IMG/VR virus record: IMGVR_UViG_3300025435_000016
Span: 1-64,000 of that record
From: a virus
DNA length: 64,000 bases
Direction: 5' to 3' (one strand)
Shown piece after piece: positions 29,509-38,291 of the stretch (positions are counted from its first letter, which is position 1; each line of letters begins with the position of its first letter). The position numbers and the translations under genes were made by a program. Below the pieces are notes generated by a model. That model made no database searches, was not told the DNA's origin, and saw only the letters and a list, made by a program, of their open reading frames with translations.

Positions 29509-29599
29509 AAGACCTGCCCGGATTCGAACCGAGATTTCTGGATTATCTATCCAACGGCTAAGGTATAAGCTTAGTGTTTTACCCTTAAACTACAGGTCC
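29509..29599 (-). tRNA. tRNA with TAT anticodon (nominal Ile) and long variable arm
   Basis: GGACCTG/CAGGTCT acceptor; CTAAG-CT-TAT-AC-CTTAG; 24-nt extra arm; TTCGAAT; no CCA. Confidence 0.75.
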
Positions 29600-30749: not shown

Positions 30750-30932
30750 TTATCTATTCTGTTTAATCCTCTTATCTAGAGCTTTTGCTTTACGCTTTTT
30801 CTTATCTATCGGCGTTTCAAAATAACGCTTAGCTCTAACTGTCTCAAGAACATAATCAACGTCCATTTTATTTTTTAAACGTTTTAGGGTACGGTCAATA
30901 TCTTCCCCGCTTCTAGGTGTCACCGAATGCAT
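30750..30932 (-). CDS. rpsU: ribosomal protein bS21
   Basis: GEDIDRTLKRLKNK...VRAKRYFETP..KKKRK. Confidence 0.85.
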   Translation of the reverse strand: MHSVTPRSGEDIDRTLKRLKNKMDVDYVLETVRAKRYFETPIDKKKRKAKALDKRIKQNR

Positions 30933-32985: not shown

Positions 32986-33468
32986 TTAATTAACCTTCAC
33001 GTCGATGTTTACGACCTCCGGTTTTACAACAGGGACCTTAACTCGAAGTAGTCCGTCTGTGTATGTTGATGAGATGTTCTTAATGTCCGTATTGTCATTA
33101 AGGGTGAAGGACAATTGTCCCTTCCTCCTACTAATGCCTCTGCGGTGGAAGTGGATGGTCTCATCATATTCCTCTTCCTCTTTATTAACATTAATGTGGA
33201 GTCGACCCTCCTTAACATTAACGGTAATATTATCCTTACCAACTCCTGCCAATGCTACTTCAATGTAGTAAGCATATGGATTCCCATCAGGATCGGTTTC
33301 CGATACGATGTTATAAGGATATGTTGCATTTGGAATATCAAACGCTTTATCAAAATCCTTGATAACGCTTGTTAACCAACTTTCGTTAAACAGGCCTGGA
33401 AGTTGGCTATAACCAAGACCTGATGCCGGAATGACCCGACCTAGTGTGTATGTGTTGTGTGTTGTCAT
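32986..33468 (-). CDS. small heat shock protein Hsp20
   Basis: YPYNI; IEVALAG; RGISRR; DGLLRV; AAGGAG SD. Confidence 0.9.
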   Translation of the reverse strand: MTTHNTYTLGRVIPASGLGYSQLPGLFNESWLTSVIKDFDKAFDIPNATYPYNIVSETDPDGNPYAYYIEVALAGVGKDNITVNVKEGRLHINVNKEEEEYDETIHFHRRGISRRKGQLSFTLNDNTDIKNISSTYTDGLLRVKVPVVKPEVVNIDVKVN

Positions 33469-35683: not shown

Positions 35684-36103
35684 TTAAACTTTGATTTTAT
35701 TAAAGAGATCGGCAGAACAGTTATTCGTTGATGCATAACCGTGATCTACTAATAAACAAGGAATACCTGCCATTTCAGCTAATGTACATACCTCTACCAT
35801 GTCATCAACATGTAAAGTACTATTTAACTCCTTTAATTTTTGTGTCTTATTACAACCGGAGGTATTATGAATACCTTTAATAGGTAGATTATGTTTTTTA
35901 ATAAATGTTTCGACTTCAGGGAGATCAGAATCCTTTCGAAAGGTAACAATATGACAATCAAAACCTTCTTCATACTTTTCAAAGACCATATCGCAAATCT
36001 TTGCTATAGGTTTTAATTCACCATCACCAACAGCAATCCAGCCACTGGAAAAAGTTTCCATGGCTAATGTATGGTCAAAGTCAAATGTTATTACCGGTCT
36101 CAT
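35684..36103 (-). CDS. HAD-superfamily hydrolase
   Basis: FDFDHTL; IVTFR; HVDD. Confidence 0.8.
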   Translation of the reverse strand: MRPVITFDFDHTLAMETFSSGWIAVGDGELKPIAKICDMVFEKYEEGFDCHIVTFRKDSDLPEVETFIKKHNLPIKGIHNTSGCNKTQKLKELNSTLHVDDMVEVCTLAEMAGIPCLLVDHGYASTNNCSADLFNKIKV

Positions 36104-36138
36104 CAGATGATTATATATCTTTTATACATTATAGCAAG

Positions 36139-36173
36139 AAAAACCCCTACTACCTGATCAGGGCAATAGGGGT
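36139..36173 (-). terminator. intrinsic terminator closing the RNA operon
   Basis: ACCCCTATTGCC...GGTAGTAGGGGT then TTTTCTT. Confidence 0.8.
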
Positions 36174-36486
36174 GAGTTCGAACTCTGTTTTCCATTTCTT
36201 TATCTCTCTGCATTTTAGGGATAGCGACTCCTTTCCGGACTTGAGACCGGCAACTGGTAGCATTACTAAAGAGGTGATTGAAAGGATTTTATTCCGGATT
36301 TTGTTCCTTCCTTAACGGAGATCAGGCATGGAGCCTCTACTTCCGTCCAGCTTGTGTTTAATCAATACGTTAGGATCAAAGCTTACCGTAGGTGTTTGGC
36401 TCCCCTAACTTGAATAAGGACTACTAACATACCAACAAGCAACTCATCCTTACCCCTCTCTAGGATAATTCCTACAACTAGAGAGT
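36174..36486 (-). ncRNA. unidentified ~310-nt structured RNA
   Basis: no sense ORF, raised GC, multiple helices, potential GGAGCC/GGCTCC loop-loop pair. Confidence 0.6.
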
Positions 36487-36496
36487 ATTAATTTTA

Positions 36497-36605
36497 TGAC
36501 CGGGGTGGTTAATCCATCCTTGTGCAGCGGTTGATAAACGCGTTTTAGAGCAACCTAGTCACCCGCACGTACGGTAGCTCTTTCGATCGAGCCTGCGAAC
36601 GGTCA
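36497..36605 (-). ncRNA. unidentified 109-nt four-way-junction RNA
   Basis: closing TGACCG/CGGTCA plus three hairpins. Confidence 0.6.
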
Positions 36606-36618
36606 AATTATTAAAATG

Positions 36619-36633
36619 TACTATCAAAGATCA
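36619..36633 (-). promoter_or_regulatory. boxA-like element
   Basis: TGATCTTTGATAGTA, identical to 37645-37659. Confidence 0.65.
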
Positions 36634-36647
36634 ATTCTTATTCTCTT

Positions 36648-36676
36648 AATATAGTGCCTGAATAAGGAAGTGGCAA
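36648..36676 (-). promoter_or_regulatory. sigma70-type promoter for ncRNAs
   Basis: TTGCCA-17(cttcctt...)-TATATT. Confidence 0.6.
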
Positions 36677-36684
36677 CTAAAAAA

Positions 36685-36758
36685 TGGAGCCTAGTGACAG
36701 AATCGAACTGTCAAGACGGATTTACAAAAACCGCATTATACCATTTAATTAACCAGGC
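36685..36758 (-). tRNA. tRNA-Thr(TGT)
   Basis: TT-TGT-AA loop, TTCGATT, CCA; one mismatch in anticodon stem. Confidence 0.85.
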
Positions 36759-36763
36759 AAATT

Positions 36764-36836
36764 TGGCAGAGGAAGGAGTTGAACCTTCTATTTCAACGTT
36801 ATGAGCGTTGCGAGATGACCGTTTCTCTACTCTGCG
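36764..36836 (-). tRNA. tRNA-Met(CAT), initiator-like
   Basis: C1xC72 mismatch, A11-U24, CT-CAT-AA; no CCA. Confidence 0.8.
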
Positions 36837-36844
36837 TTAAAAAA

Positions 36845-36968
36845 TTGTAAGTTCCTTTGTCCTAAAAACTTGAAGCGTCCTTCATTATGTATTAGTTTTG
36901 TACGAACTTACGACGAACCGGTTCCATGCATACAACCTTTCGAACAGCTGTAGAGAGGGTTTTGCCGA
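36845..36968 (-). ncRNA. unidentified ~125-nt two-domain structured RNA
   Basis: TACAGC/GTTGTA, GTAAGTTC/GAACTTAC, AAAACT/AGTTTT, TGAAG/CTTCA stems. Confidence 0.5.
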
Positions 36969-36996
36969 TTACTGTAAAGTGGTGGAGGCGAGGGGA

Positions 36997-37202
36997 CACT
37001 TAATCTCTAGCTTTCGCTAAAGCGTGGACTATATCTTCACCCGTAAGGGTGTTGGATGCTCTAGCCGGTACTCCGGTAGTCTCTGCACCTTCCTATTTCT
37101 AGGCTCGGCTCAGTATTGCCATATTGCTTTCGCAATTTAGGTTTCACTGAATTCTTCCAATTTATTCATTATCTATTACTAGATAAGTCGACCTGCATGT
37201 TG
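36997..37202 (-). mobile_element. group I intron (206 nt, no ORF) in tmRNA T-loop
   Basis: P/Q/R/S cores AATTCAGTGAA, AATACTGAGC, GCAGAGACTA, AAGATATAGTCC; exon ends U, intron ends G; removal restores AGGGG-TTCGATT-CCCCT. Confidence 0.9.
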
Positions 37203-37432
37203 ATCGAACCCCTGTGTTTATACTGTTAGGCTTGTACATCTACACGCTTAGCTAGCTTTCGTACTTTGGTTGACTAAAGGTAACCAGGCACCAGCGACCT
37301 ATCCATGTTTAGAGTCCTACCTATGCAGATGGAAGAGCTCTGCATAACCCCTTGCACTTATTTTAAAGGTATCACAAGTTCTACCTTACCTATTATTTTT
37401 CCAAAAGCGTAATAGGATCTGCTTTTGGTTCC

Positions 37433-37540
37433 TTAGGCTGCGATAGCGAGAGGAGCCATTTCGTCACAGAGACAGAACTCTGTGATTGTATTGACTGCCT
37501 TCTTTACCTTGGCGAGGATTGCGTTGACGTTAGTCTTTGC
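37433..37540 (-). other. tmRNA tag reading frame
   Basis: ATAAAC|GCA resume context; AKTNVNAILAKVKKAVNTITEFCLCDEMAPLAIAA*. Confidence 0.8.
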
Positions 37541-37638
37541 GTTTATGTTTTGATTAGCTTTTTAAAGTGGCCAACTAATCAACCACTACGTGCAATACAA
37601 GTTTCGAGTATAAGTCGAATCCAGTACGCCCCCAAAAT

Positions 37639-37676
37639 TATTTATACTATCAAAGATCATTTGTCCTAATGGACAT
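37639..37676 (-). promoter_or_regulatory. tmRNA leader: hairpin, boxA-like element and late promoter
   Basis: TGTCC-ATTA-GGACA, TGATCTTTGATAG, TATAAATA. Confidence 0.6.
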
Positions 37677-37706
37677 TCTATTAATATATAGTCTATTTTA
37701 AGAAGC

Positions 37707-38291
37707 TCAAGCAGGAATATAATTAATATTCATCACTACTCTCCTAGCTGTTTGTGTCGGGAGGGTGCCAGTGTGATAATGCAAACCATCGAAGATTAAA
37801 AGTCTATTTGCTTTAGCCTTTACAGTATCTAGAACTGTTGGTGTTTGAAATGTATTCTTGAGATACGCATCAGATACAAAGTTCGATGTACAGTCGTACT
37901 TCTCCTTATAAACGATAGTGTCGCCATCGGAATCATTTATATAAAGAAGTGCTGTTTTATGAGGTACACCTTCATCAATATGGACACCATTCTCATAAGG
38001 TTTATCTGCTATCGTATTAAGAATTAATCGAACTCGGAGAAGAGTATCAATCTTCTCGTTAGCGTTTGAAAGAACTCTAGTAACCGTATTCTCAATAAGC
38101 CGATGAGGATCATATAACCATCTTCCGTGATTAAACGCTATACACTGCCAACCTATGAGGTAGGGATTATCTTTTTCATTTGTCTCTCTAGTTGCCTTTC
38201 TTCCATAATTCCATGGAAAGTCAAATGACATAATATAATTTTGAAAAATATTAAATTCAGCTGACTTGAGAATATGATCTACAATTTGCAT
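37707..38291 (-). CDS. 2OG-Fe(II) oxygenase
   Basis: HID; ALLYINDSDGDT; FDGLHYH; RVVMNIN. Confidence 0.8.
   Translation of the reverse strand: MQIVDHILKSAEFNIFQNYIMSFDFPWNYGRKATRETNEKDNPYLIGWQCIAFNHGRWLYDPHRLIENTVTRVLSNANEKIDTLLRVRLILNTIADKPYENGVHIDEGVPHKTALLYINDSDGDTIVYKEKYDCTSNFVSDAYLKNTFQTPTVLDTVKAKANRLLIFDGLHYHTGTLPTQTARRVVMNINYIPA

Follow-up and report, generated by a model that had tools for sequence, protein, structure and literature searches.

Phage T4 makes RNAs C and D, small stable RNAs of unknown function that are co-transcribed with the phage tRNAs, and we know of no ribozyme or BoxA leader that T4 uses for them. Theta ribozymes, which are similar to the hepatitis delta virus (HDV) ribozyme, adjoin phage tRNAs, and twister of type P1 was reportedly introduced by Roth et al. 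in 2014 as a self-cleaving ribozyme. In Escherichia coli, RNase E removes the intrinsic terminator from the tRNA precursors of some operons (PMC5291269). For BoxA, a leader element of ribosomal RNA (rRNA) operons (rrn), the gamma-proteobacterial consensus is GYTCTTTAANA (PMC5725501). Genes for transfer-messenger RNA (tmRNA) that contain an intron are known from 883 sequences, with the T-loop intron mostly at position 7 (PMC11915505), and the RNAs ROOL, GOLLD, OLE, and manA assemble via kissing loops (bioRxiv 10.1101/2024.12.08.627333; 10.64898/2026.07.01.735769). Here we describe an operon of RNA genes in a 64,000-nucleotide (nt) stretch of DNA from an uncultured lake phage, referred to as the window, which covers positions 1 to 64,000 of the 76.4-kb IMG/VR virus record IMGVR_UViG_3300025435_000016. 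The record is ca. 35% complete according to CheckV.

The operon spans positions 36139–37710 of the window and lies on the minus strand throughout. It is very probably a phage stable-RNA island with two promoters, host-type BoxA leaders, a chain of folded RNA modules, and a twister ribozyme at its end. The main new result is the match of its leader motif to real 16S leaders; the likely phylum of the host and a unit composed of one RNA module (M0) and a twister are also new.

The RNA operon and its BoxA leaders

A first-pass annotation of the window, made by a model from the letters alone, had proposed a dedicated, antiterminated stable-RNA operon in 1.5 kb of DNA without a credible protein gene. 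Between the flanking genes at 35684–36103 and 37707–38291, no open reading frame exceeds 128 amino acids (aa), even when TGA is read as tryptophan and TAG as glutamine. The proposed order of elements was borne out by Rfam, ARAGORN, the promoter and terminator scan, and the motif count, all of which agree. This stretch without protein genes is a genuine operon, one that holds nothing but RNA genes. The consensus scan places promoter P1 (TTGAGC-16-TATATT) at 37683–37710 and promoter P2 (TTGCCA-17-TATATT, 10 of 12 consensus matches) at 36648–36676. P2 is kept in all relatives, and the P1 counterpart in contig L002, which belongs to a sister phage and encodes a flanking protein of 77% identity, is TTGACT-16-TATATT. 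Behind each promoter lies one copy of the 15-mer TGATCTTTGATAGTA, which occurs exactly twice in the 64 kb. Copy 1 (37645–37662, AAATGATCTTTGATAGTA) contains the exact 15-mer and is preceded by a boxB-like hairpin with a 5-bp stem and a 4-nt loop (37662–37675). Copy 2 (36619–36633) is also exact; only leader 1 has a hairpin adjacent to BoxA. The operon has a single strong intrinsic terminator in the consensus scan, a 12-bp stem with a trailing U run at 36143–36173, and this terminator is kept in relatives.

The leader motif has counterparts in bacterial rrn leaders. In 16S loci from 31 genomes of a verrucomicrobial class, a G-N-TCTTT-R-A motif is found in the leader of 22, located 130–342 nt before the 16S, and its position 2 is T, C, G, or A. 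The leader of genome G123 holds TGATCTTTGATAG, which equals the phage motif, with a hairpin directly before it; compared with phage leader 1, 16 nt are identical. The exact 13-mer gives 14 matches in 12 of the 151 genomes of the order to which G123 belongs, and the reversed control gives one. For six of these 14 matches, the locus includes the start of a 16S gene, which lies 259–343 nt downstream of the motif; a seventh (locus L413, genome G097) has the same leader sequence, but its contig breaks off ahead of the 16S gene. The ATTGATCTTTGATAG form of copy 2 equals the rrn leader of G097, and one of the 14 matches has the ATTG... flank of copy 2. C4 and T6, which are critical in the E. coli consensus, are kept in the phage motif. 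As the motif is identical to that of 16S leaders, its assignment as a host-type BoxA, together with the rRNA-operon-style reading, is well supported at the sequence level. In viral contigs, 14 of the first 111 listed 15-mer matches precede tRNA, tmRNA, or module genes; the other matches, out of at least 111, were discarded as mostly due to chance.

In the mechanism that we propose, two sigma-70-type promoters would each drive an untranslated transcript, the leader of which bears the BoxA of the host's rRNA operons. BoxA would load the NusB/NusE complex onto RNA polymerase, as it does in rrn operons and BoxA-led CRISPR (clustered regularly interspaced short palindromic repeat) arrays. A long untranslated RNA would thereby be protected from Rho and could be produced rapidly. 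For Nus-factor binding and resistance to Rho, we draw here on work in E. coli (PMC5725501, PMC4807359). Hence, the dedicated stable-RNA operon of the first-pass annotation stands, with an rRNA-type leader defined by the BoxA match, and its antitermination is the part that we infer. Support for that annotation is partial: the roles that it had suggested for the unassigned RNAs, on the host ribosome together with the tmRNA, the tRNAs, and bS21 or as decoys for anti-phage RNases, stay conjectural. It is rather improbable that the 15-nt motif instead serves as a binding or cleavage site for a phage protein or an RNase, or that it merely belongs to an extended promoter or to the stretch transcribed first. 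The motif does lie 15–30 nt past the −10 box, where initial-transcript elements are also located, and at position 2 it does not follow the E. coli-type consensus. However, an identity of 13–16 nt is found at the BoxA position of the 16S leaders of one lineage, where position 2 varies as well, and within the window the motif stands only before untranslated RNA operons.

Like rrn leaders and BoxA-led CRISPR arrays, the operon combines a strong sigma-70 promoter, a hairpin with BoxA, and a long untranslated transcript containing multiple RNAs. Different from rrn operons, it is phage-encoded and drives a tmRNA, tRNAs, and uncatalogued RNAs in place of rRNA. It also lacks a spacer with a second BoxA, and the search for processing stalks on its flanks gave none. 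The 16S model gave no match on the phage.

The host is likely verrucomicrobial, as judged from BoxA and a phage-encoded bS21. The bS21 gene is located at 30750–30932 (minus strand; Pfam, 54.3 bits), and in species genomes all 80 of its 80 best matches are from Verrucomicrobiota, with identities of 39–60%.

RNA modules and the twister end

The RNA segments that the first-pass annotation had left unassigned are conserved and folded. Its unknown RNA past the tmRNA exists, refined here to a discrete 123-nt module, M0 (36846–36968), and its 109-nt RNA to M1a (36497–36606), which has 110 nt and is closed by GACCG/CGGUC. The following RNA of ca. 310 nt, taken as one, is in fact two elements, a pseudoknotted RNA of ca. 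229 nt (M3, 36265–36493) and a twister ribozyme (36197–36272). The annotation had missed the twister, the pseudoknot of M3, and the cassette nature of the RNAs. Apart from the twister, the search of 35900–37900 gave no family match for these segments: at E ≤ 10, M0, M1a, and M3 find no counterpart among the 4,227 families of Rfam, which include ROOL and GOLLD. ROOL and GOLLD also found no match in L002 at E ≤ 0.01. BLAST of the three modules against verrucomicrobial rrn loci returned only matches of at most 12 nt (E ≥ 0.19). A pattern for M0 had no matches in 185,579 species genomes, which is weak evidence as the pattern was exact. Two candidates were rejected: the pattern GACGG-N-GGCTCCATGCC, whose more than 119 matches are about the number estimated for chance, and rRNA mimicry by M3, which has a short but non-significant resemblance to the start of the 16S (UUUGAUCC, AACACA).

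The covariation comes from ca. 25 related freshwater contigs, found by scanning IMG/VR and JGI metagenomes with patterns. The 18 distinct M0 sequences have 93.8% of cells paired and compensatory changes in 16 of 29 pairs, a result equaled by none of 500 shuffles. In the 15 distinct M3 sequences, pairing amounts to 94.4%, and compensatory changes occur in 12 of 42 pairs. In the long-range M3 pseudoknot, the large loop of the second hairpin pairs with the linker before the fourth helix; this pairing is 98.9% complete and includes three compensatory pairs. A second candidate pairing in M3, GGAGCC/GGCUCC, is invariant and hence uninformative. For M1a (nine distinct homologs), the unrelated M1b, and M2, the consensus folds from RNAalifold contain compensatory changes. 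M2, which is absent from the window, has ca. 110 nt, is closed by GAUUACUG/CAGUAAUC, and lies between M1 and M3 in some relatives. M0, M3, and the twister covary strongly, and conservation together with covariation makes the modules more than chance.

The relatives have a common module order. The first part consists of the tmRNA (in some), tRNAs, M0, tRNA-Met, and the promoter with the motif; the second part consists of tRNA-Met (in some), M1a or M1b, an optional M2, M3, the twister, and the terminator. The modules are spaced by short A/U-rich linkers, and each closes on its own terminal helix. M3 is the constant member of the second unit, and its last bases double as the 5′ strand of twister P1, whereas the slot of M1a is filled by M1b or tRNA-Met in relatives. 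Since relatives swap, add, or drop modules, or put tRNA genes in their place, the modules are read as separate products and not as domains of one giant RNA. The transcript would be a chain of independently folded modules, i.e., the tmRNA with its self-splicing intron, M0, tRNA-Met, tRNA-Thr, M1a, and M3, from which individual modules may be released.

The second unit (M1a, M3, and the twister) has ca. 470 nt, and it is very unlikely to form a single giant ornate RNA of the ROOL/GOLLD type, with the modules as its peripheral domains. One promoter and one terminator are common to all its parts, one contig from an RNA library spans the border of M1a, and ROOL and GOLLD also adjoin phage tRNA genes and multimerize by kissing loops (bioRxiv 10.1101/2024.12.08.627333). 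Against these stand the lack of a ROOL or GOLLD match even at the permissive threshold above, the exchange of M1a for M1b or tRNA-Met, the optional M2, and the ability of M3 to stand alone after a tRNA. Moreover, each module has its own terminal helix, no covarying pairs connect modules, and in the relative L281 the twister follows M0 alone.

We also considered M0, M1a, and M3 as cis-acting scaffolds for the folding, processing, or stability of the neighboring tmRNA and tRNAs, to be degraded later like the helices of rRNA leaders and spacers. M0 sits just upstream of tRNA-Met in most relatives, with its conserved core 62–67 nt before the tRNA start, and the operon copies features of rrn leaders. 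On the other hand, M0 occurs without a following tRNA in three relatives (L051, L133, and L285) and in L281 forms a promoter-M0-twister-terminator unit. M3 ends a unit that holds no tRNA in this window, its ribozyme-defined 3′ end is more in keeping with a product than with a spacer, and RNA-library contigs of two studies cover it. A scaffold role for the modules is therefore unlikely, and we return to the reading as separate RNA products.

The twister match to RF03160 covers 36269–36200 (32.4 bits, E = 1.3e-4 in a 2-kb search), and the twister of L002 scores 31.1 bits. It is a divergent member of type P1. The 15 distinct copies are 87.4% paired, with 13 of 23 pairs changed on both sides, which none of 500 shuffles reached. 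P1, P4, and P5 covary; P4 is 98% paired with three of its four pairs compensatory. Both pseudoknots, formed by the P4 loop with the P1–P2 junction and with the P2–P3 junction, are 100% paired in 15 of 15 copies. They differ from the Rfam consensus in having CUC/GAG (or GGG) for CCC/GGG and AC/GU for GC/GC; as they are invariant within the set, their support comes from this comparison. The low score is attributed to these substitutions, which are paired but penalized by the covariance model, and we consider the match genuine. The ribozyme resembles type P1 twisters in its P1-P2-P4 core with optional P3 and P5, the UAA at the cleavage site, the two pseudoknots, and the loop motif G-U-C-N-C-A-A-G-N-C. 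Different from them, it has a clear context here, since it comes last in a stable-RNA operon, with the terminator right behind it. Twisters of this subtype (loop GUCUCAAGUC) also occur in unrelated phage contigs (L124:10676-10737, L134:1259-1320, and L119:1994-2066), where they are flanked by protein genes or preceded by a promoter and have no tRNA genes nearby.

In L281, the twister and the terminator stand directly past M0. Hence, the twister belongs to the operon 3′ end and not to M3, and together with the terminator acts as a general 3′-end cassette in the arrangement of these operons. Cleavage is predicted between U36265 and A36264, and most likely serves to detach the terminator hairpin from the last RNA, which would be left with a 2′,3′-cyclic phosphate end. 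This would parallel the removal of terminators by RNase E, in which an endonuclease likewise cleaves shortly before the terminator and sets the mature 3′ end of the last stable RNA. The difference is that here the transcript itself would do the cutting through the twister, and that the product would end in a cyclic phosphate.

The apical loops of M1a, M1b, and M3 have changed in sequence yet stayed self-complementary, including central bases that are unable to pair within the hairpin. Specifically, the apical loop of the last M3 hairpin is A-rich with UCCGGA, UUCCGGAA, or AUUCCGGAAU at its center, or AUACUAGUAU in another branch. The M1a loop presents ACGCG or AGGCC on an A/U mini-stem, and the M1b loop UCGGCCGA or GUGCAC. 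The predicted self-duplexes have energies of −10 to −26 kcal/mol, which at most 3.4% of shuffles reach. These predictions suggest loop–loop pairing between two copies of M1a, M1b, or M3. The M0 hairpin loop is often self-complementary as well (UUCGAA, UCGCGA, or UUGCAA) but was not counted, as a conserved GAAA-type loop takes up part of this sequence and some relatives lack the self-complementarity. The phage modules are like ROOL, GOLLD, OLE, and manA in being phage-associated, lying beside tRNA genes, and keeping their apical loops self-complementary. Unlike these RNAs, to which they have no sequence or model match, the modules are much smaller and modular, and their self-assembly is a prediction. 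T4 RNAs C and D are comparable in genomic setting, and in that respect alone, as small folded RNAs beside the tRNAs of a T4-like phage that behave like extra tRNA-sized cassettes.

Two freshwater metatranscriptome runs from different studies contain contigs of close relatives over M3 (36285–36416 and 36296–36471), M1a (36495–36592), and the tag region of the tmRNA. No contig in these RNA libraries covers the tRNAs, the twister, or the terminator. The M3 contigs stop 20–30 nt short of the predicted cut site. In a relative, a DNA run joins across the tRNAs. The RNA contigs give a weak hint of expression and cleavage.

Several points weigh against our reading of the island. Position 2 of the phage motif is A, versus Y in the gamma-proteobacterial GYTCTTTAANA (PMC5725501), and Nus binding in the verrucomicrobial lineage is an assumption. 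The twister score lies far below the gathering cut-off of 67.2 bits. The module borders are deduced from closing helices and cassette swapping, and one contig from an RNA library crosses such a border, that of M1a. The RNA evidence consists of assembled contigs of relatives, which do not show ends or strand and could derive from DNA. As to the host, the 16S of G123 is only ca. 79% identical to the Opitutales loci with the best bS21 matches, for which reason we assign the host to the phylum only. Spacer-like matches to 20 kb of the phage were absent from the 151 genomes of the BoxA-bearing order, an uninformative result.

tmRNA, tRNAs, and neighboring genes

The tmRNA is the first product of the upstream unit. 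It scores 53.0 bits with RF00023 (gathering cut-off, 47) despite its intron, and the score is 109.7 bits for its ortholog in L002, which has no intron. Exon 1 (37203–37633) comprises the acceptor 5′ strand with G3, the pseudoknots, the tag frame, and the 5′ half of the T-stem; exon 2 (36980–36996) comprises the 3′ half of the T-stem, the acceptor 3′ strand, and CCA. The acceptor pairs 5′ GGGGGCG with CGCCUCC-ACCA, and the G3-U70 pair is present. The two exons are separated by a 206-nt group I intron (36997–37202), which matches the full length of RF00028 with 84.6 bits (cut-off, 50). Its bounds, fixed by alignment to the intron-less gene of L002, lie between T-loop nt 6 and 7. In the intron P1, exon UCGAU pairs with intron GUCGA, the U at −1 is paired to G, and the intron ends in G (36997). 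Once joined, the exons match the L002 gene save one loop base and restore the T-loop UUCGAUU. From these features, the intron would splice itself out; no contigs spanning the exon junction were found in the RNA libraries. The gene is like the described intron-form tmRNA genes in the insertion at T-loop position 7, the pairing of the −1 U with G in P1, and the G at the intron end. It lacks a gene for a homing endonuclease, and the intron has 206 nt versus an average of 293 nt (PMC11915505). Unlike those genes, it is phage-encoded, has an intron-less allele in a sister phage, and carries an unusually long tag.

The tag reading frame (37433–37540) encodes 35 aa ending in PLAIAA and a stop codon, and the tag of L002 differs from it by conservative changes only. 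L281 carries a 33-aa tmRNA tag. In five verrucomicrobial genomes, the tmRNAs have tags of 9–18 aa, four of which end in ALAA; as these are so short, we rejected the idea that the phage tag was copied from these host genomes. Neither SmpB nor RtcB was found in the 76-kb fragment, which is uninformative at its ca. 35% completeness. SmpB is presumably supplied by the host copy.

M0 is followed by tRNA-Met (CAU anticodon, 36764–36836) and tRNA-Thr (UGU, 36685–36758), both found by ARAGORN and Rfam. The tRNA-Met has a C1×C72 mismatch at the acceptor-stem top, reminiscent of the unpaired 1–72 of initiator tRNA, and is without the three anticodon-stem G-C pairs of the initiator. In L002 (7183–7350) and other relatives, extra tRNAs (Ile-GAT and Trp-CCA) that are absent from the window lie between the tmRNA and M0. 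Elsewhere in the window, ARAGORN predicts a 91-nt tRNA-Ile (UAU anticodon) with a long extra arm at 29509–29599 (minus strand). Among the tRNA clusters, a protein of the Hsp20/alpha-crystallin family is encoded at 32986–33468 (minus strand; Pfam, E = 3e-16). Directly past the operon terminator, a near-consensus promoter (TTGCTA-16-TATAAT, 36110–36137, minus strand) presumably serves the 139-aa gene at 35684–36103. The virion proteins of the phage are ca. 32% identical to counterparts of T4-like cyanomyoviruses. No close cultured relatives were found among 50,697 phage records, in which the matches were tRNA-sized only.

Significance for phage RNA biology

To our knowledge, no natural role has been established for twister ribozymes since their discovery. 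Here, the context gives the twister a directly testable candidate role, the removal of the terminator from the RNA that comes last in a stable-RNA operon. If the reading is true, a phage that copies the rRNA BoxA of its host to drive non-coding RNAs of its own takes Nus antitermination into a setting other than rRNA, lambdoid nut sites, and CRISPR arrays. Matching of BoxA is in addition a new way to predict the hosts of uncultured phages, in this case Verrucomicrobiota.

As to what the modules do, our guess is that M0, M1a, and M3 are trans-acting RNAs made in bulk during infection, with M1a and M3 pairing with themselves, and that they act on host translation or RNA-directed defense. In a fuller form, M0, M1a or M1b, and M3 would be new phage effector RNAs, brought to rRNA-like amounts by the hijacked Nus machinery and tailored by a ribozyme. 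At least M1a, M1b, and M3 would then form homodimers or larger RNA-only particles that act on host translation or soak up RNA-directed defense; we put this forward tentatively, as a possibility with the odds against it. Three to five RNA families supported by covariation (M0, M1a, M1b, M2, and M3) are absent from Rfam. M1a and M3 of the window, together with M1b, look built for self-pairing and are good candidates for structure determination. M1a, M1b, and M3 also bear on the old question of the extra small RNAs in the tRNA clusters of T4-like phages.

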